Counted from the stretch's first letter, positions 4,465 to 51,072 are shown. The stretch: DNA of 51,072 nucleotides from an uncultured Candidatus Saccharibacteria bacterium (GCA_964393065.1 CAYMRY010000001.1:1-51072), one strand, 5' to 3'. A program made the numbers and translations. The notes: generated from the sequence alone by a model not told the origin.

Positions 4465-4593
4465 GCATCAACTATGGCACAGGATGTGCCGGGGGCAAGT
4501 GGCGTATGGGGACACAGCAAGAGTAGCAGAATGTGTGCTTAGAGTACTAAAGTACCGCTCATGAGCATGAGACAAGTAGACTGTAGTAGGTGT

Positions 4594-4729
4594 GGGTCAC
4601 GGATATTTTTCATGCCGTCGCATTAAAAATTCCGTGACCACGGCTCGCGGTTTCGTCTGCTGACGAAACATCACTCCGCCCGTCCACAACGCGAAAGCAC
4701 CATGCGCAGGCATGGTGCTTTCGTCGTTG
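4594..4729 (-). repeat. tRNA-trailing structured element, copy Ala-B
   Basis: Read in tRNA sense: long H1 (gaaagcaccatgc / gcatggtgctttc), GGCGGAG, H2 gtttcgtc-agca-gacgaaac (plus 4650-4669), CGCGAGCC, then H3 ggtcacgga...gcgacggc...tccgtgacc (plus 4595-4639). Aligns with copy Pro-B with compensatory changes. Confidence 0.7.
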
Positions 4730-4747
4730 TGGGCCGTACCGGGATCG
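4730..4747 (-). repeat. 18-nt near-copy of the tRNA-Ala 3' end (T-loop to discriminator)
   Basis: tgggccgtaccgggatcg versus tggaccgtaccgggatcg at 4904-4921 (17 of 18 identical). No 5' half of a tRNA is present. Confidence 0.85.
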
Positions 4748-4903
4748 GCGCAGCTCACTACGTTTTCTGATCGCCTTGCAGGCTCCATAAAACTAAGTGG
4801 CTCCTGCCCTCCCTCGCCTGTCGCAGGCGACATGGCTCCGCCTTTCGATCCCGGTCGTACGCAAAGAAGTTTGCGTACTTACGGTCCAAAAAATGATATT
4901 TTT
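4748..4903 (-). repeat. tRNA-trailing structured element, divergent copy Ala-A
   Basis: In tRNA sense: ggaccgt, hairpin gtacgcaaa-cttc-tttgcgtac, accgggatcg, AAA-GGCGGAG, hairpin cgcct-gcgac-aggcg. Shares the cgaaaggcggagc motif with Pro-B, and ends at the tRNA-Ala 3' fragment. Confidence 0.55.
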
Positions 4904-4976
4904 TGGACCGTACCGGGATCGAACCGGTTGCCTCATCCATGCCATGGATGCGCTCTACCAAGTGAGCTAACGGCCC
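4904..4976 (-). tRNA. tRNA-Ala (anticodon GGC)
   Basis: 73-nt cloverleaf read by hand: acceptor GGGCCGT/ACGGTCC with G3:U70, D arm GCTC-ACTTGGTA-GAGC, anticodon arm CATCC-ATGGCAT-GGATG, T arm ACCGG-TTCGATC-CCGGT, discriminator A. CCA is not encoded. Confidence 0.9.
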
Positions 4977-13475: not shown

Positions 13476-13493
13476 TCGGGATACTGGGAGTCG
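13476..13493 (-). repeat. 18-nt exact copy of the tRNA-Pro 3' end
   Basis: tcgggatactgggagtcg is identical to 13642-13659. Confidence 0.9.
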
Positions 13494-13641
13494 GTCAGGG
13501 ATACATTTTTCGCCGTCGCTCAAAATGTTCCCCGACCCGGGCTCGCGGTTTCGCGTGCTCGCGAAACATCGCTCCGCCTTTCGCCTCCCTCGAAGAATGT
13601 GCGAAGGCACATTCTTCGTATCCGCACTCGCTTCTCTCGTG
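13494..13641 (-). repeat. tRNA-trailing structured element, copy Pro-B
   Basis: In tRNA sense: gcggatac, H1 gaagaatgtgc/gcacattcttc, gagggaggcg, AAA-GGCGGAG, H2 gtttcgcg-agca-cgcgaaac (plus 13548-13567), CGCGAGCC, then H3 ggtcgggga...gcgacggc...tccctgacc. Confidence 0.7.
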
Positions 13642-13713
13642 TCGGGATACTGGGAGTCGAACCCAGCGTCTCTTGCACCCCATGCAAGCGTGTTGCCGCT
13701 ACACTATATCCCG
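13642..13713 (-). tRNA. tRNA-Pro (anticodon GGG)
   Basis: 72-nt cloverleaf: acceptor CGGGATA/TATCCCG, D arm GTGT-AGCGGCA-ACAC, anticodon arm CTTGC-ATGGGGT-GCAAG (G37), T arm CTGGG-TTCGACT-CCCAG, discriminator A. CCA is not encoded. Confidence 0.88.
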
Positions 13714-45088: not shown

Positions 45089-45394
45089 TCAATCCCTAAT
45101 TCTCCTCTGTCGATCAATCTGAACTTTGTCCACCTTGAGGCCATTGAGGCCATGCTTGTCGATCGCGCGCTGCCATGAAAGAAACTCGTCAACGGTGATG
45201 TTGTAGCGCTCGCACATCTCATCAAAACTGATGAGCCCGCCGCGCACCGCGGTGACCACTTCAGCCTTCCGCCGAATAACCCACCGCTTCGTATCCCGAG
45301 GCGGCAGATCCGCCACGGTTAAGGGTTTTCCATCGGGGCCGACGACATGGCGGGTTCGAACTCGTAGATCCGACTTCTTCTCGATATTCGACAT
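45089..45394 (-). CDS. DUF1153 (SciP-like) helix-turn-helix protein
   Basis: 101 aa. GPDGKPLTVADLPPRDTKRWVIRRKAEVVTAVRGGLISFDEMCERYNITVDEFLSWQRAIDKHGLNGL closely follows the DUF1153/SciP pattern as I recall it. Confidence 0.7.
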   Translation of the reverse strand: MSNIEKKSDLRVRTRHVVGPDGKPLTVADLPPRDTKRWVIRRKAEVVTAVRGGLISFDEMCERYNITVDEFLSWQRAIDKHGLNGLKVDKVQIDRQRRIRD

Positions 45395-46244: not shown

Positions 46245-46563
46245 TCCGCGGTGGCGCAACGGTAGCGCAGCTCGCTGTCAATGGCAGCTCTTTGGAGGAA
46301 TCCAAAGATGTATAACGAGGAGAATTGCTGGAAGCCCAAACCGTCATTGGTGGGTAATCAGCAGCCGAGACCCACGAGATAGCGCAAGCTTTATCTCACG
46401 GGTAAGGTTCAGAGACTATCCGAAAGGAGTAGGCCGGTAACGGTCGAAGCACCTCGCATCCCATCAGTCGAATGACTAAGGATGATGATATAGTCCACCC
46501 CCTTTAGAAATTTAGGGATAATGTGTAACGAGTTGGTTGTAGGTTCGAATCCTACCCGCGGAG
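46245..46563 (+). tRNA. tRNA-Asn (anticodon GUU after splicing) interrupted by a group I intron
   Basis: Exons are 46245-46278 and 46526-46563 (72 nt spliced). Acceptor TCCGCGG/CCGCGGA, D arm GCGC-AACGGTA-GCGC, anticodon stem GCTCG/CGAGT, T arm GTAGG-TTCGAAT-CCTAC, discriminator G. The spliced loop reads CT-GTT-AA. U1-A72 plus G73 fit Asn identity. Confidence 0.75.
46279..46525 (+). ncRNA. group I intron in the anticodon loop (between positions 35 and 36)
   Basis: 247 nt. P1 forms ctgT/Gcag with a U-G pair at the 5' splice site. P2 is ctttgga-GGAA-tccaaag. Core elements GTTCAGAGACTA (46408-46419) and GATATAGTCC (46487-46496) are present, with a GCAA-capped hairpin at 46377-46397 and a terminal G at 46525. 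Confidence 0.85.
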
Positions 46564-46723
46564 CTAGAAATCAGTTGGACCCCGAAGCATGTCTTCGGGG
46601 TCTTACTGTTTCTCTCCGTCGGTAGGATTCGAAGGCGAGCCCGAGGATCCATTCAGTAGAATGGATCGGGCGAGCGTGGTCAGGCGAAGTTTTGATTCGA
46701 CGGAATCAAAACGAGTGCTTGAC
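46564..46723 (+). repeat. tRNA-trailing structured element, copy Asn-1
   Basis: H1 gaccccgaag-catgt-cttcggggtc (46578-46602), antisense-core tccgtcggtaggattcg (46615-46631), AA-GGCGAGC, H2 gatccattc-agta-gaatggatc (46646-46667), GGCGAGCG, then H3 ggtcagg...gtttt-gattc-GACG-gaatc-aaaac...cttgacc (46678-46724). Confidence 0.7.
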
Positions 46724-46740
46724 CGAATCCTACCCGCGGA
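46724..46740 (+). repeat. 17-nt exact copy of the tRNA-Asn 3' end
   Basis: cgaatcctacccgcgga is identical to 46546-46562. Confidence 0.9.
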
Positions 46741-46884
46741 CTCAAAACGAGTGCGACACGGTTTCGTTAGGATTCGAAAAGAAATTCGGGGCGCCCATTC
46801 AGTAGAACGGGTCGAATTTATAGGGTCGAGAAATTATCACAATCGACGGAGCGAAAAATGTTCTTGACCGAACCTAGCTGCGGA
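46741..46884 (+). repeat. tRNA-trailing structured element, copy Asn-2, plus decayed tRNA-Asn 3' fragment
   Basis: ttaggattcg-AA, a decayed H2 (cccattc-agta-gaacggg), then H3 ggtcgagaa...atcGACGGag...ttcttgacc (46824-46869). It ends in cgaacctagctgcgga (46869-46884), a diverged copy of cgaatcctacccgcgga. Confidence 0.55.
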
Positions 46885-46925
46885 CAAAATGATACCTGAC
46901 CCTGTTATTTCATTTCCTCTTTCAA

Positions 46926-47945
46926 CTAATTATCGCGCCGATTTCTTCGGCCTGTATACTGGTTTTTTTGTTCCTCAATATACCGTTTCTGATCAAGAAG
47001 CCGTTCCTCAACAAAGGTTTTATCCTTCAGTAACTCTGGATGTTTACGTGCCCAAGCATCAACTGAAATAAACAAGCCTGTGAGTTGCTGTATAAAAGAA
47101 TTGTAAAAGGAATCAAAGTCGTCAAAACCTTGAAAAAGCGTCTTGAATTTTCGATCCGTTTTTCCCTCAAGAACTTTTTCGAATATCGCCCGCATGTGTC
47201 TTTTCCCCGCTCCACCATAGAAGCGCTCTTTGAGCATCTCAAGTTTTGCAAGGTAAATACGTATTGTTTCACGCGATTGACCACTCTTGAAAAAATCTTC
47301 TATATCAATTTTTGGGAGCGCGTTGAAATGCGAGACATGGAAATCGAAGAAATACACCTTCGAATAATTATCTGAGACATGCATGTTGATGACATGGTTT
47401 TTTATTCGATCTGGATAGCGACCGTACCCGAACTCCAAGTTAGTCTCGAGACTATGGTCTTCGTCTCCAAAAATCGTTCGCAAAAGGAGCACGTCGGCTT
47501 CAATCTCGGCAAACGAATGCTCGTGCTCGACACGGTTCATATCGCCGTCCCTGTAAAAAGCGTAGTATTTTGTCTTCGTAATGAACGGCGTTAATGAACT
47601 CAAGGGCCATTTCTCGACATGGAAATCAGTAACTGGAATAATTCCTTTCAAAATCAAAGACACTGCGTATTGTGTTTGAGGATACTTCTCACTCTCTATT
47701 TCATGTAAATACTCACCATTTGGTCCACGTAGTCTTACTCCGGGCATTTCGTACGATATTGTTCCTGATGGCGAATATTGCGAAAACTCAGTCTCGATTC
47801 GTGTTGCTCTTTCTTTCAGCCCTGGTTGTGGCAATGGAGTAGTCGTCATTGGGTCAATCCTGTTCTCATCCGCATTCTTACGTATTTCTCGGACGAGATC
47901 AGGAGAGATTGTTTTGTGGATGAGGCGTCGCTTCTCGATACTCAT
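46926..47945 (-). CDS. hypothetical protein (island cargo)
   Basis: 339-aa ORF between element copies Asn-2 and Asn-3, visibly AT-rich. No family recognised. FGDEDHSLETN ... YFFDFH is vaguely kinase-catalytic-loop-like. Confidence 0.5.
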   Translation of the reverse strand: MSIEKRRLIHKTISPDLVREIRKNADENRIDPMTTTPLPQPGLKERATRIETEFSQYSPSGTISYEMPGVRLRGPNGEYLHEIESEKYPQTQYAVSLILKGIIPVTDFHVEKWPLSSLTPFITKTKYYAFYRDGDMNRVEHEHSFAEIEADVLLLRTIFGDEDHSLETNLEFGYGRYPDRIKNHVINMHVSDNYSKVYFFDFHVSHFNALPKIDIEDFFKSGQSRETIRIYLAKLEMLKERFYGGAGKRHMRAIFEKVLEGKTDRKFKTLFQGFDDFDSFYNSFIQQLTGLFISVDAWARKHPELLKDKTFVEERLLDQKRYIEEQKNQYTGRRNRRDN

Positions 47946-48040
47946 ATACTAAGTATACAGCGAAATTACCATCGATCCGACCACAGCTTTTAAACTCGTT
48001 TGTTGCTTGTTACGATCGAAAGTACTGAACTCGTCGCATC

Positions 48041-48218
48041 TCGGGAGCTAGAAATCAGTTGGACCCAAAACATGTCTTAGGGGTCTTACTGTTTCAAGGT
48101 CGGTAGGATTCGAAAGACGGAGGCGGTCTACACGCAGGCTTGCGTGACGCCGAGTCGGGGTCGCGGAATTTTGTGAGTGACGGCGAGCAAAATATCTGTA
48201 ACCGAATCCTACCTTCGA
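48041..48218 (+). repeat. tRNA-trailing structured element, copy Asn-3, with decayed tRNA-Asn end on both sides
   Basis: tcgggag (cf. cgcggag) is followed by ctagaaatcagttggaccc..., nearly identical to 46564-46633. Then gtaggattcg (48103-48112), GGAGGCGG, H2 cacgca-ggct-tgcgtg (48131-48146), GCCGAGTC, H3 ggtcgcgga...gtGACGGcg...ctgtaacc, ending in cgaatcctaccttcga (48203-48218). Confidence 0.6.
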
Positions 48219-48388
48219 CTCCTTATTTAAAAAGAAATGCCTAGTTCGCCTTAGCGACATCACTCGACCACAGAGCCTAATAACACCACTGTTTCTCGTA
48301 TTTTGAGGTGCTTAGCTCCATTTTATTGTATGGTGTGACCAAGTGAGATCATTGGTAATGTTAGGCATTTTGATAGAATACTTGAACG

Positions 48389-49162
48389 ATGCGAAGGACC
48401 TCAAAAAAGAAACTTACTACGATCCCAGGACCAATTGGTCGGCTTCAGGCAGCTGGTGGCTATGCAACTATATTCCAGAAAACAACCAAGGCCGTAAAAG
48501 AAAAATTTCCCAGGGAAAATGATGACCATGCTTTCGGCCATTATTACGCTACTCGAACAAGCTCAATAAATACCCTCTTCCAATTTTACGTCGACCTTTT
48601 TGAACATCTCGATATTTCAATTGGGACCGTGCGCACCTTAAGACAAGCGCACTGGACACTCCGTTTGCATCAGGCTAATAGAACAAAAAAGGCGTTTGAA
48701 CGAAACGTTGTATTTGCGCTTAAAATAATAAAAAACGCTGACGAACAATTCAAGCCTAAAGTTTCGTTACTAAGTCGTATTGAATGCATCCGACTTCACG
48801 AAGCAATGCAGTGCCTTAGTTCGCAATGTCATTTAAGCGCAGTGGTGATGGCGGTATCAGCTGTAGAGCATAGACTTCATAAGATTGTGGAAAAAACAGA
48901 CTCAGTATTGTATGCGGCTAATTTTGCCGATGCAACACTCGGAGGCATCATTCAATTATTCCAACGAGATCACTATAAAGATGCGAAATTCCAACCTTTT
49001 AAACAGATTCTTCCGGATAAGCACAAGCCTCTTATGGAAATGCTAAATATCTACCGCATCTTTACAGCGCATCCAAAGGATGAAAATGTAACGCACCAAA
49101 CTGCTGCAGCCATTCTCTCTCTATCATTCTTGTTGTTAACAGATAAGTCTCTAAAAATTTGA
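48389..49162 (+). CDS. hypothetical protein with a DUF4145-like C-terminal half (tentative)
   Basis: 257 aa. LHEAMQCLSSQCHLSAVVMAVSAVEHRLHKIV ... LGGIIQLF ... LNIYRIFTAHPKD resembles the DUF4145 helical pattern. Weak call. Confidence 0.4.
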   Translation: MRRTSKKKLTTIPGPIGRLQAAGGYATIFQKTTKAVKEKFPRENDDHAFGHYYATRTSSINTLFQFYVDLFEHLDISIGTVRTLRQAHWTLRLHQANRTKKAFERNVVFALKIIKNADEQFKPKVSLLSRIECIRLHEAMQCLSSQCHLSAVVMAVSAVEHRLHKIVEKTDSVLYAANFADATLGGIIQLFQRDHYKDAKFQPFKQILPDKHKPLMEMLNIYRIFTAHPKDENVTHQTAAAILSLSFLLLTDKSLKI

Positions 49163-49381
49163 TATCAGCATTACCAATCACGTTAGTGCGATTTTTAGCA
49201 CTTAGCAACACAATTGAATGTCAATTTGGTTCCAACTTCGTCCCAAACCCCGAGCCGTCATCATTTGTTGGTGTTTGTTGCCAGCAAAATTTTAAGTAAT
49301 TGACTACGCCAATATCATATGGCAACGTTGCCCGGGGACTTCTAATCCCAGTAAGTGTTTGCAAAAAGAGGAGCGATCGCA

Positions 49382-49714
49382 ATGACGACCCTAAATGAAG
49401 TGGGTGGAGTGCGCGTTTTCGGCAAAGGCCAGGAAACCTGGTCGACCAAGGAGGGGCGTATGATTGCCTCCATGCGGGCGGTATTCGATTCGGACCTTCC
49501 GGTTCCCGATGTCGAGAAGGACGAATTGGGTCCGTATTTCGTCTTGCCGTGTCATCGCGGCAAGAAGGACTACGAGATTCATCTTCTGGAAACCGGAGAG
49601 GCCATCGTCATCAAGGACGGAGGGATGCATCTCTGCACCCAGCGCGACGGCCAACCGCAGGTGCTGAGATACGAACCGCTTCCAGCATACCAGGAAGCAG
49701 CACACACCAGATAA
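49382..49714 (+). CDS. hypothetical protein
   Basis: ATG at 49382 is preceded by gaggag (the ORF track starts at 49355). Visibly GC-rich, no family recognised. Confidence 0.4.
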   Translation: MTTLNEVGGVRVFGKGQETWSTKEGRMIASMRAVFDSDLPVPDVEKDELGPYFVLPCHRGKKDYEIHLLETGEAIVIKDGGMHLCTQRDGQPQVLRYEPLPAYQEAAHTR

Positions 49715-49950
49715 TCGAACTTCGTTCCGCCGAAGCCGCCCCACAAAGGCGGCTTCTTCTTTAAACAGTTGGCACCACCACCCTTTCCGCATTGAAAAAG
49801 GTTCGAAGATCAAAAGCCCAGGGGAGCATTGGTATTTGTTAGCGTTTGTTGGTATTGTTGGCGCACGTTCTTTCATATCTCAAATCCTGGAGGTGTCTCG
49901 TGAACTGTATAAACGCGTGCTTCAGATCTGACGATCCGCGAGGCCGTGCG

Positions 49951-50592
49951 ATGAGCAATTTTTCATCTCACCCGTTTGTCCTCGACGGTGTTCGTTGCAA
50001 GACGGTGGAGGCGTTCATTCAGGGGATTAAGTTTCCGTCGGATGATCCACGTCGCGATCAAATCTTTAACATGGATGGACTTCCCGCATGGAAGATGCGC
50101 ATCCATGCCAAGGGCGACTACGTGTGGTGGAACGGAGATCAGATCATCTATCGTTCGCCAGAGCACTCTGCCCTGATCAAACGGGCCATCGAAGCAAAGT
50201 TTGCGCAGAATCCGGAAGCAATGGAGGCGCTCACGTCGACCAAAGATCTCGTGATTATTCACGAGCCCGGCGGTACAAAAAAACGCAAAAACGGGGACAA
50301 ACAAAAACGGGGACAGGCACAGTTAATTCAAAATAAGAGTGGTATAGTAATTTTCATGGCACGCGTCGCACGCGTAGATGTTGGTGATCAGGTGTACCAC
50401 GTACTCAATCGCGCTATGGGACGTCTGCAAATATTTAACACGACTGAAGACTACAAACTTTTCCTGCATCTCTTGCGTGAAGCAAAAGAAATGACGGACA
50501 TGCGCGTTCTTTCTTTTGTTGTTATGCCAAATCATTGGCATCTACTTCTGTATCCTAGAAACGACGGTAACATGGCACTCTTCATGCACTAG
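49951..50592 (+). CDS. NADAR (DUF1768/YbiA-like) domain gene whose 3' end runs into the inserted RAYT element
   Basis: From ATG 49951: FSSHPFVLDGVRCKTVEAFIQGIKF ... IKRAIEAKFAQNPEAMEALTSTKDLVIIHE is a NADAR-like pattern. There is no stop before the reading frame enters IR-L (50306) and the transposase frame, so it reads as one fused ORF up to the TAG at 50590. Confidence 0.5.
   Translation: MSNFSSHPFVLDGVRCKTVEAFIQGIKFPSDDPRRDQIFNMDGLPAWKMRIHAKGDYVWWNGDQIIYRSPEHSALIKRAIEAKFAQNPEAMEALTSTKDLVIIHEPGGTKKRKNGDKQKRGQAQLIQNKSGIVIFMARVARVDVGDQVYHVLNRAMGRLQIFNTTEDYKLFLHLLREAKEMTDMRVLSFVVMPNHWHLLLYPRNDGNMALFMH
50306..50325 (+). repeat. left inverted repeat of the RAYT unit
   Basis: Exact 20-nt reverse complement of 51051-51070. 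Overlaps the second of two 14-nt direct repeats caaaaacggggaca (50286-50299, 50302-50315). Confidence 0.85.
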
Positions 50593-51027
50593 CTAACCAA
50601 TTCCCACACGCGTCGCGTACACACCCTTACAAACACCATTGGAACCGGACCTCTCTATCAAGGGCGCTACAAGTCTTTCATCACGAAAGACGATTCACAT
50701 CTCCTAACCGTATTAAAATACATTGAGCGCAACCCTGTGCGAGCACGACTTGAATCTAATGCTGAATCATGGCTCTGGGGAAGCGCGTGGTTGCGTCTGA
50801 ACGGTACCCTAGTGCAGAAGCGTCTTATATCTGAACCACCCGTCGAGCTACCCCGCGCATACCGCACATGGATCAATACTCCGGACTGTGACAAGGATTT
50901 GGAAGCAGTACGCAAGTCAGTTATTCGAGGTACTCCCTACGGCACTGAGAGCTGGGTCGAGCACATGGTAGATATATACAAGCTCACCGCTACCGTGCGC
51001 AAACCAGGGCGACCAAAGTCGGTATAG
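50356..51027 (+). pseudogene. Y1 (HUH) transposase, IS200/RAYT family, interrupted by one in-frame TAG
   Basis: MARVARVDVGDQVYHVLNR ... VVMPNHWHLLLYP (HUH motif), then TAG at 50590-50592. The same frame continues LTNSHTRR ... GPLYQGRYKSF ... LKYIERNPVRA (catalytic Tyr region) to the stop at 51025-51027. Confidence 0.75.
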
Positions 51028-51050
51028 ATTACACCATAACATTTCAGCAA

Positions 51051-51070
51051 TAACTGTGCCTGTCCCCGTT
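51051..51070 (-). repeat. right inverted repeat of the RAYT unit
   Basis: Exact reverse complement of 50306-50325. The window ends 2 nt later, so the outer flank is not visible. Confidence 0.85.
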
Positions 51071-51072
51071 CC

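Follow-up and report, generated by a model that had tools for sequence, protein, structure and literature searches.

A family of structured RNA cassettes behind tRNA genes of Patescibacteria and the antisense segment that they carry

The tRNA genes of the window and their elements

The window, the stretch of 51,072 nucleotides from an uncultured Candidatus Saccharibacteria bacterium (GCA_964393065.1, CAYMRY010000001.1) that was analysed in this study, contains three tRNA genes, namely tRNA-Ala(GGC), tRNA-Pro(GGG) and tRNA-Asn(GUU). Each of them is followed on its own strand by one to three elements of approximately 125–180 nt, and six copies are present in total. [quoted passage not shown] The tRNA-Asn gene is followed by three copies.

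46245–46563, plus strand: tRNA-Asn(GUU), host of Asn-1; exons 46245–46278 and 46526–46563, the intron splitting the anticodon loop
46279–46525, plus strand: group I intron in tRNA-Asn (RF00028 match 46267–46517, 63.8 bits)
46546–46562, plus strand: T, the last 17 nt ahead of the tRNA-Asn discriminator
46564–46614, plus strand: Asn-1 spacer, trailer and hairpin gaccccgaag/cttcggggtc, read from the sequence
46615–46631, plus strand: Asn-1 T', antisense to the tRNA-Asn 3' strand; 5' strand of the closing helix P0
46632–46723, plus strand: Asn-1 core, a divergent type-1 three-way-junction RNA (model R1, 40.3 bits, E = 6e-8)
46724–46740, plus strand: Asn-1 T copy, a direct copy of tRNA-Asn from C56 to 72; 3' strand of P0
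46765–46884, plus strand: Asn-2, a degenerate tandem copy (R1 31.1 bits; weak fold, z = −1.7), with T' cgttaggattcg at 46765–46776, core at 46777–46868 and T copy cgaacctagctgcgga at 46869–46884
48043–48220, plus strand: Asn-3, type-1 (R1 73.6 bits; fold z = −4.2), with spacer at 48043–48099, T' tcggtaggattcg at 48100–48112, core at 48113–48202 and partial T copy cgaatcctaccttcgact at 48203–48220

The tRNA-Asn gene is called neither by ARAGORN nor by the Rfam tRNA model because the group I intron splits it, and its exon borders were set by comparison with the identical, intron-less tRNA-Asn of the related contig L120. At Asn-1, tccgtcggtaggattcg (T', 46615–46631) is complementary to cgaatcctacccgcgga through 15 Watson–Crick pairs and one G–T pair, with one C–C mismatch. 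The target cgaatcctacccgcgga occurs twice in identical form, in the tRNA (46546–46562) and as the closing copy (46724–46740). In a chance control, 17-mers were sampled at steps of 37 along both strands of the window and the best complement of each within the next 120 nt was scored; a complement of 16 out of 17 positions arose once in 2750 trials (0.04% of control positions). The MFE fold of Asn-1 has a z-score of −9.85, and its core subtype recurs in another contig (L193), which has a similar core. The spacer, T and T' of Asn-1 are able to form a single long imperfect hairpin, and by alignment the same spacer recurs 5' of Asn-3 at 48043–48099. In Asn-3 itself, 48103–48112 pairs with 48203–48212.

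Across the family described below, the start of the repeat in the 3' flank is bimodal and lies either at C56 of the T loop (form B, 23 loci) or in the last bases of the tRNA (form A). The two forms are about equally common, each making up roughly half of the family, and the copies behind tRNA-Pro and tRNA-Ala include both.

13642–13713, minus strand: tRNA-Pro(GGG), host of Pro-B (ARAGORN/Rfam)
13476–13625, minus strand: Pro-B, a canonical split form-B element (R1 103.6 bits; z = −7.4)
13625–13582, minus strand: 5' parts of Pro-B, T'a at 13625–13618, hairpin H1 at 13617–13592 and T'b at 13591–13582
13581–13476, minus strand: 3' parts of Pro-B, joiner J (AAAG) and type-1 core at 13581–13494 and T copy cgactcccagtatcccga at 13493–13476
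4904–4976, minus strand: tRNA-Ala(GGC), host of Ala-A and Ala-2 (ARAGORN/Rfam)
4730–4887, minus strand: Ala-A, split form-B with a longer variant core (R1 only 16 bits; fold z = −6.2)
4887–4846, minus strand: 5' parts of Ala-A, T'a ggaccgt at 4887–4881, H1 at about 4880–4857 and T'b accgggatcg at 4855–4846
4845–4730, minus strand: 3' parts of Ala-A, core at 4845–4748 and T copy cgatcccggtacggccca at 4747–4730
4588–4733, minus strand: Ala-2, a form-A element where the displaced Ala 3' copy ends (R1 94.6 bits; z = −10.3), with a long CUGC-loop hairpin H1 at about 4731–4687, X' gttgtgg, type-1 core at 4686–4595 and X copy ccacac at 4595–4588

The MFE fold of Pro-B shows an acceptor-like stem, H1, an extended T-stem-like helix and the three-way junction; its gcggatac (13625–13618) and gagggaggcg (13591–13582) are imperfect complements of the tRNA 3' strand. 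In Ala-A, ggaccgt is a perfect complement of acggtcc and accgggatcg of cgatcccggt, and the T copy differs from the tRNA by a single mismatch at position 70. The A of T'a (ggAccgt) stands opposite U70 and is thus the complement of the 3' strand, where the 5' strand of the tRNA has G3. This Watson–Crick match, which is no copy of the 5' strand, argues that T' was derived from, or matched to, the 3' strand. Ala-A displaced the old Ala 3' end together with its own form-A element Ala-2, which implies that Ala-A entered later, at the T loop. On re-reading the sequence, the positions and pairings that an earlier note on this DNA had given for Asn-1, Ala-A, Pro-B and Asn-3 all proved correct.

Distribution of the family and its RNA cores

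A degenerate pattern of 22 bases derived from three window copies was used to scan one genome per GTDB species and gave at least 118 loci. At least 74 of these are genuine, the remaining matches being chance occurrences in high-GC coding DNA, and at least 107 copies lie in at least 74 loci of Patescibacteria besides the six of the window. Among the matches listed, the genuine loci belong to metagenome-assembled genomes labelled Patescibacteria/CPR or unclassified ('bacterium'), save three auto-labelled 'uncultured Bdellovibrionales', and the groups named are Paceibacterota, 'Saccharibacteria', and Nomura-, Kaiser-, Lloyd-, Yonath-, Vogel-, Moranii- and Yanofskybacteria. Among the matches listed, 71 elements have a tRNA or tmRNA gene within 300 nt, which lies upstream on the same strand for 62 of them and on the opposite strand for one; in the CPR loci listed, 68 of 127 tRNA genes are followed within 300 nt by an element on the same strand. 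The host tRNA in these loci may be of any amino-acid type and is mostly the last gene of a tRNA cluster. Tandem arrays are common, one array stands behind a tmRNA gene, and two elements follow the apparent end of rplL. In CPR genomes, the cassettes account for the 'extra' partial tRNA 3' ends and for conserved blocks between genes that have no annotation.

An alignment of 76 cores yielded a consensus of 92 nt with 29 base pairs, 18 of which show compensatory changes, at a mean column identity of 72%. Paired cells make up 95.1% against 77.7% in shuffled alignments, double-change cells number 400 against 109 (none of 500 shuffles equalled the observed value), and sliding the partner lowers pairing to 33–47%. 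One G·U pair is kept in 72 of the 76 cores and another pair alternates between GC and GU, which identifies the folded strand as the tRNA-sense strand. The core is a real conserved RNA, and the covariation shows that its fold is under selection. Its sequence conservation is overstated, since the pattern by which most loci were collected fixes 22 bases, and the invariance of CGGAG, CGAG, GGTC, GGAA and GACGG was imposed by this pattern; a covariance model retrieved about 30 further copies that do not match it, as well as the divergent window copies. Rfam 15 gave no match for the cassettes at the gathering threshold and none of relevance at E ≤ 10 for the window and type-2 examples, on which ground known ribozymes, riboswitches, omega RNA/HEARO, tmRNA and SRP RNA were rejected, and a keyword search found no description of the element in the literature. 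The cassettes form a previously undescribed RNA family, the most common core of which is a 92-nt three-way junction with strongly conserved loops; at least two or three sister cores exist beside it. The consensus loops of H1 (CUGC) and P2 (AGCA/GCAG) are complementary and constitute a candidate kissing pair, but a permutation test shows no co-variation between them (2.56 against 2.55).

A metagenome scan with the 3' half of tRNA-Asn returned 78 loci, most of them empty and six carrying elements. Three of the six share the scaffold ctccgcg–H1(CUGC)–gaggtaggattcg ... tRNA-Asn end copy, which holds a type-1 core in L174 and a different, 'type-2' core in L134 and L149. Two others (L193 and L182) resemble the Asn-1 element of the window in having a contiguous T' without H1, and the core of L152 is different again. 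Cores of three types or more are found on one scaffold behind the same tRNA-Asn, and type-2 and additional cores also occur behind other tRNAs. The common denominator is the scaffold, not the core.

The antisense segment and the tRNA-like fold

In form B, the complementarity of T' to the tRNA begins at C56 and extends as far as the acceptor end. For 27 T-loop elements from other genomes, the segment preceding the core pairs with the 3' end of its own tRNA at a mean of −22.3 kcal/mol and with other tRNAs at −15.1 kcal/mol, and the own tRNA is among the best three of about 50 for 16 of the 27. In form A, the complementarity of the antisense arm is confined to 3–11 nt, covering the terminal bases of the tRNA and the trailer (typically CACAAG-like), and the arm also makes up the basal part of a long hairpin directly adjoining the tRNA; a tRNA-like stem is entirely missing from form-A elements. 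T' follows its host tRNA over 19 isoacceptors in about half of the copies. What the antisense arm follows in every case is the local sequence found again at the 3' border, and this sequence is the tRNA body in form B only. The claim of the earlier note that the antisense segment changes with the host tRNA extends to many genomes, to 19 isoacceptors and to different cores behind tRNA-Asn. Cataloguing the copies, which the note had proposed as a check, likewise placed the own tRNA among the best three for the 16 elements mentioned, while the form-A arms match the tRNA end plus the trailer.

A closing helix beside the core is present in nearly all copies, with a mean of 5.2 bp anchored at the junction against 2.8 in controls (tandem G·A pairs were taken as mismatches). 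Unanchored duplex energies (−18.6 against −15.4) discriminate poorly because of shared CGA/CAC ends and GC-rich hairpins, and junction-anchored counts were used instead. H1 precedes the inner 5' strand of this helix; 37 of 79 elements have CUGC (not GCAG) as its loop, compared with 1.3% of background windows. The order of a cassette from 5' to 3' is T'a, H1, T'b, a 4-nt joiner (NNAG; AAAG in form B), the core and the copy of the tRNA 3' end from C56. In 11 form-B loci with different tRNAs, Pro-B and Ala-A among them, H1 (22–28 nt) splits T' at T index 9–11, which is the junction of the acceptor and T stems.

In the predicted fold of the split form-B copies, T'a and the T copy form a 7-bp acceptor-like stem, T'b and the T copy form a T-stem-like helix that is 5 bp longer by way of T-loop positions 56–60, the core occupies the place of the T loop and H1 that of the D/anticodon arm. 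The features of a tRNA-like structure, namely a 7-bp acceptor-like stem that stacks on a T-stem-like helix, an unbroken 3' strand and a discriminator base, are found in split form-B copies only, and the 5' strand is interrupted at the 7/49 junction. The exact position of the split points to structural mimicry of tRNA over a simple guide. The earlier note had named, as an alternative, a trailer RNA that mimics an acceptor–T minihelix, and with the 11 split loci and the MFE folds this is the part of it that has gained most.

Our best explanation, held with slightly less than even confidence, is that the elements are mobile, protein-less RNA cassettes that mimic tRNA, reside at the 3' ends of tRNA and tmRNA genes and are processed by the enzymes of the tRNA ends. 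A cassette would be co-transcribed with the tRNA of the same strand, and its mimicry would allow RNase P and RNase Z to release it as a stable small RNA; going by the known substrate rules, these enzymes or the CCA-adding enzyme may recognize the fold. The cassettes would be mobile now or would have been so recently, would enter either the T loop (between U55 and C56) or the 3' terminus and leave a direct target repeat, and T' would match the host tRNA through having been copied from, recombined with or corrected against the local gene. The antisense segment is best read as one strand of a tRNA-like closing stem rather than as a free-standing programmable guide, and the best-supported description, which reaches far beyond the window, is that of CPR-wide cassettes that wrap structured RNAs in an imitation of the acceptor/T arm. 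If this is true, Patescibacteria, which have genomes of about 1 Mb and make up a large and poorly understood share of bacteria, devote many loci to unrecognized structured RNAs that copy the 3' half of whichever tRNA precedes them, and a natural tRNA-shaped scaffold for expressing other RNAs is at hand.

Several observations bear on whether pairing within the cassette is all that T' serves. It pairs better with the upstream functional tRNA end in 31 of 54 loci and with the downstream copy in 13 of 54, and the gaps are large in L009, L064, L006, L119 and L040 and where the copy has diverged or is 7–14 nt long. Direct repeats measure 7–28 nt, and several downstream copies end after 7–14 nt. In loci with a truncated copy the acceptor-like stem is impossible, but T'a retains its perfect complementarity to the tRNA. 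This agrees with selection for pairing to the tRNA itself, or with correction to that end, and is not predicted by the processing model. The direct repeat reaches 7–9 nt into the trailer in L016 and L076, direct repeats that include the trailer attain 27–28 nt, and in several loci the inverted repeat also includes the trailer, giving in L006 and L009 perfect palindromes of more than 20 bp directly behind the tRNA. Repeats that run into the trailer are expected of local copying or recombination and less so of a pre-existing programmable guide. The stretch from the tRNA to T' often contains a plausible terminator hairpin (L055, L076, L086), which would limit co-transcription. It seems from these data that T' is either a copy of the local tRNA or kept corrected against it, or else that its pairing with the tRNA itself matters, and the better upstream pairing, the trailer repeats and the terminator-like hairpins keep guide, regulatory and by-product models alive.

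A regulatory model would have the element control tRNA maturation in cis, with T' switching between the 3' half of the tRNA, which would be misfolded or masked, and the downstream copy, which would set the tRNA free, the core acting as a sensor. T' has two alternative partners in every copy, its complementarity to the tRNA reaches 18–28 bp and −35 to −42 kcal/mol (L009 and L006), and in form A X' may choose between the tRNA-abutting hairpin and the closing helix. We nevertheless regard this model as very doubtful: the second state that it requires, the downstream copy, has decayed or been cut short in many loci, relatives have the same tRNA without an element, and tandem arrays and an element-bearing pseudogene are unexpected of a regulator. 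Nor is there a ligand-like pattern of conservation or a tie to a particular type of tRNA.

The same repeats could be a by-product, in which T' has no role and the direct–inverted–direct layout is the scar of core copying between tRNA loci, either by template switching of replication or of a reverse transcriptase or by recombination at the T-arm motif GGTTCGAnTCC, with quasipalindrome correction keeping T' perfect. Such a history would agree with a local segment present three times (T, T' and copy) in repeats of 7 to 28 nt that extend into the trailer, with the long perfect palindromes centred just behind the tRNA (L006 and L009), with the junction microhomologies ..TCG|AAAG and GAC|CGA.. common to all copies and with the absence of a linked dedicated enzyme. 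What makes it unlikely is the conservation of the parts. No accident of copying would bring an H1 of fixed size, with its conserved CUGC loop, to precisely the acceptor/T junction in each of 11 unrelated loci, the helix adjacent to the core persists in nearly all copies at nearly twice the control length (5.2 against 2.8 bp), and the covariation indicates an RNA fold under selection.

Signs of mobility, linked genes and known systems

Presence of the cassettes varies among relatives: the identical tRNA-Asn of L120 and the tRNA-Pro(GGG) of L126/L127 have no element, and decayed copies such as Asn-2 and others are present. The cassettes offer markers of strain-level variation. L108 has a decayed tRNA-Lys pseudogene, the T loop of which contains an element, with an intact copy of the gene adjacent, and the T-loop variant beside the element (cgaatcc) matches T', the resident gene having cgagccc. 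No empty site with exactly matching flanks was found in the relatives traced through arginine decarboxylase, the tRNA-Pro loci of which are rearranged, or among the metagenomic tRNA-Asn loci, none of which has the downstream flank of the window. By its arginine decarboxylase, which is 86–91% identical to CPR proteins, the window resembles Paceibacterota.

The earlier note had reported that no recombinase, nuclease or reverse-transcriptase gene lies beside any window copy. A Pfam search of ten ORFs flanking these copies bears this out, revealing no recombinase, nuclease, reverse transcriptase or integrase, and all-against-all BLAST clustering of the ORFs within 3.5 kb of the 74 listed elements found no enriched family; the recurring ORFs are spurious ones read across the core and syntenic housekeeping genes only. 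The 339-aa ORF between Asn-2 and Asn-3 is an ORFan with three homologues. A Y1_Tnp-like ORF fragment lies at 50390–51027, about 2.2 kb from Asn-3, and has homologues in none of the element-bearing loci listed; a serine recombinase is present at the tRNA-Asn of L120, a locus without a cassette. A pattern scan of IMG/VR and a blastn search of INPHARED gave a single chance match in coding DNA, and a phage or plasmid carrier was rejected on these searches. If the preferred reading is right, the elements present a tractable case of an enzyme-less non-coding element that targets essentially every tRNA gene.

It is against this background that a true guide has to be judged, in which T', with H1 and the core as scaffold, would pair with the 3' half of the tRNA and direct a recombinase, nuclease or reverse transcriptase encoded in trans. 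The target repeat would then be a target duplication or, in a variant, an att-like site of a single-stranded T/T' hairpin intermediate as in CTX-phage and attC. T' follows 19 isoacceptors and a tmRNA with any type of core, the boundaries fall exactly at U55|C56, in L108 T and T' appear to have moved as a unit, and T' still matches the tRNA where the downstream copy has decayed. The orientation of the element relative to its target is nearly constant (62 upstream on the same strand against one opposite, among the 71 listed), and the conserved loops of H1 and the core resemble, as far as their sequence tells, protein-binding sites. Yet neither the window nor the 74 listed loci contain a linked candidate enzyme, the Y1-like ORF having no homologues there, and the viral and phage collections have no copies. 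Moreover, the complementarity of form A is just 3–11 nt and directed to the trailer, repeats into the trailer look copied from the target rather than carried to it, and a guide has no need for the H1 split of T' at the acceptor/T junction. We therefore consider a guide improbable, though to be taken seriously. The guide-like interpretation of the earlier note, which was correct about the antisense tracking and the lack of a linked enzyme, is only partly supported; against a guide stand the trailer match of form A in about half of the family, the repeats into the trailer and the position of the split, and the proposed analogies to the group I IGS, group II EBS, bridge RNA and omega RNA fail the family tests run here, which gave no Rfam match and no adjacent enzyme.

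The likeness to such guide RNAs (IS110 bridge RNA, TnpB/IscB omega RNA, group II EBS and group I IGS) lies in a scaffold joined to a target-matching segment, and omega RNAs also have many protein-less solo copies. The cassettes differ in having no Rfam match or nearby partner protein, in that about half of the family lacks tRNA complementarity, and in that the complementarity of 17–18 nt is split by a hairpin and paired inside the element. An IS110 or IS200/605 guide RNA was rejected for want of an Rfam match and of an adjacent DEDD recombinase, TnpB or IscB. Group I and II introns were rejected as well, the cassettes having no match to a ribozyme core and the sole intron match of the window lying inside tRNA-Asn, as was a retron ncRNA, for which the closing helix and a long 3' hairpin are present with no adjacent reverse transcriptase and with multiple copies per locus.

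Williams in 2002 reportedly classified the T-loop and 3'-end sublocations of integration into tRNA genes. Like the cassettes, islands and prophages with tyrosine integrases enter tRNA and tmRNA genes by way of the T loop or the 3' end, are flanked on both sides by direct repeats of the tRNA 3' segment while the gene stays intact, and pile up in tandem. The cassettes, however, are 125–180 nt and not kilobases long, carry no integrase or other gene, have an additional antisense copy of the target and a covarying fold, and use at least 30 isoacceptors for a single family. Although the direct repeat of the tRNA 3' segment expected of a tRNA-targeting integrative element with a tyrosine or serine integrase is present (from C56 in 23 loci, or at the 3' end), this class was rejected, there being no integrase gene among the ten flanking ORFs and the elements being only 125–180 nt long.

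In the attP(+) site of CTX-phage (XerCD) and in the attC sites of integrons, inverted copies of the site fold into a mimic of the duplex target, as T and T' might, and integron cassettes are likewise short, promoter-less, arranged in tandem arrays and swappable in cargo. The tRNA-end cassettes differ in having no linked recombinase or known single-stranded replicon; their G·U pairs and loop conservation argue for RNA, and their cargo is a structured RNA without an ORF. Assignment to the integron cassettes (attC) was rejected, as the arrays begin at tRNA genes and no integrase is adjacent. A broader reading, which we rate as quite unlikely, would make the family a 'tRNA integron', that is, an insertion system free of protein genes and addressed by nucleic acid, with interchangeable RNA cargoes and with T/T' arms that imitate, or guide to, the end of a tRNA gene. 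One enzyme acting in trans, or a host enzyme of tRNA processing or repair, could then place cassettes behind any tRNA or tmRNA gene.

The preferred reading, that of processed tRNA mimics, has structural parallels among tRNA-like modules, which include the tRNA-like domain of tmRNA, the mascRNA of MALAT1, the tRNA–miRNA chimeras of gammaherpesviruses, the TLS of plant viruses and the engineered 'tRNA scaffolds'. These too attach an acceptor/T-arm mimic to an unrelated structured RNA and are adjacent to, or transcribed together with, substrates of Pol, RNase P and RNase Z. In the cassettes, by contrast, a foreign RNA stands in for the T loop, the mimic has the sequence of the adjacent tRNA and changes with it, and the copies are multiple and polymorphic. 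Finally, MITEs and REP-like palindromic repeats are also short non-coding sequences that occur in many copies between genes, often at the 3' ends of operons, can fold and depend on a factor in trans. A MITE was rejected because the terminal arms vary by copy and equal the local target, with 72% identity and compensatory changes in 18 of 29 pairs. Unlike MITE and REP copies, those of the cassettes are not near-identical, their stems covary, their ends match the local target and their orientation is fixed to the upstream gene.

Second and variant cores of the cassette

The cassettes behind tRNA genes, in which two antisense arms (T'a and T'b) are split by hairpin H1 and followed by a core and a copy of the tRNA 3' end, do not all carry the type-1 core, the commonest one, a 92-nt three-way junction. 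A second conserved core, type 2, has the T'a-H1-T'b scaffold in common with type 1 and is marked by the motifs GTACYG..CTCCTGTAAGGAG and by a mini-hairpin, AAGCGTAYTCGCGG, immediately 5' of the tRNA copy; it gave no match in Rfam. The mini-hairpin is also present in some type-1 elements (L029, L040, L055, L105 and L118; L-numbers denote loci or contigs from other genomes or metagenomes). Additional core variants occur on the common scaffold, and among them a longer type-1 variant (Ala-A, the element behind tRNA-Ala(GGC), and L031, L039, L025, L036 and L074) is detected only weakly by R1, the covariance model of the type-1 core.

Type-2 cores and additional core variants
L029 6140-6330, type 2
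L053 3400-3560, type 2
L036, downstream of 1822, minus strand, type 2
L003, downstream of 1344, minus strand, type 2
L134 and L149, type 2
L075 2854-3050, additional variant
L152, downstream of tRNA-Asn, additional variant
Window 4845-4748, minus strand, additional variant (Ala-A core)

Within the core alignment A2, certain sequences of the core hairpin P2, such as GTTTCGCGAGCACGCGAAAC, GTCCCGCAAGCTTGCGGGAC and GCCGAGCCAGCAGGCGAGGC (window 13493-13584, minus strand; L007; L069; L086), turn up again in genomes that are distant from one another, and copies within the same genome (L075) have P3 and P4 in common and differ in P2. Together, these observations suggest either subfamilies or an exchange of modules. 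The H1 loop has the consensus CUGC (often aCUGCUu) and the P2 loop the consensus AGCA/GCAG (A2 columns 28-34). These two sequences are complementary, which suggests a loop-loop contact; a permutation test revealed no co-variation between the two loops, since both are nearly constant.

A LOOT RNA (L085 5621-5752; RF03000, 51.9 bits) was observed on a Lloydbacteria contig that bears a cassette as well.

Intron and surroundings of tRNA-Asn

The tRNA-Asn(GUU) gene is interrupted in its anticodon loop by a group I intron, with U as the last base of the 5' exon and G as the last base of the intron; in the related contig L120 the same tRNA is intron-less. In a metagenome scan, the distance from the 5'-exon start to the tRNA 3' end was 290-640 nt in several tRNA-Asn loci, which suggests introns of differing sizes.

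What looks like a variable island lies downstream of this tRNA (window 46890-51072; L120 1-19000). [quoted passage not shown]

Features around tRNA-Asn in the window
45089-45394, minus strand, DUF1153/HTH_28 protein (a helix-turn-helix of the transposase-associated type), 0.85 kb upstream
46279-46525, plus strand, group I intron (RF00028, 63.8 bits)
46926-47945, ORFan in the island
48389-49162, ORF without a Pfam match in the island
49846-51027, ORF in the island with NADAR/gp30.3 and IS200-like Y1 transposase matches, apparently frameshifted

Possible repeats and remnants of tRNA sequence

Several element-free tRNA-Asn loci (L128, L154/L189, L155/L185, L176 and L203) carry a hairpin followed by 'GGTTCGAA(T/C)' approximately 65 nt (60-75 nt) downstream of the tRNA, in some cases repeated farther downstream. 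The motif may represent a further type of T-arm-like repeat at this tRNA.

Just past the tRNA 3'-end copy in Pro-B, the element behind tRNA-Pro(GGG), lies an orphan 3' fragment of a different tRNA:
Window, about 13460-13435, minus strand, acgagttcgattctcgtccgcccga
In the relatives L126/L127, tRNA-Ala(CGC) comes immediately after tRNA-Pro(GGG), and the fragment may therefore be what is left of a neighbouring tRNA that was lost.
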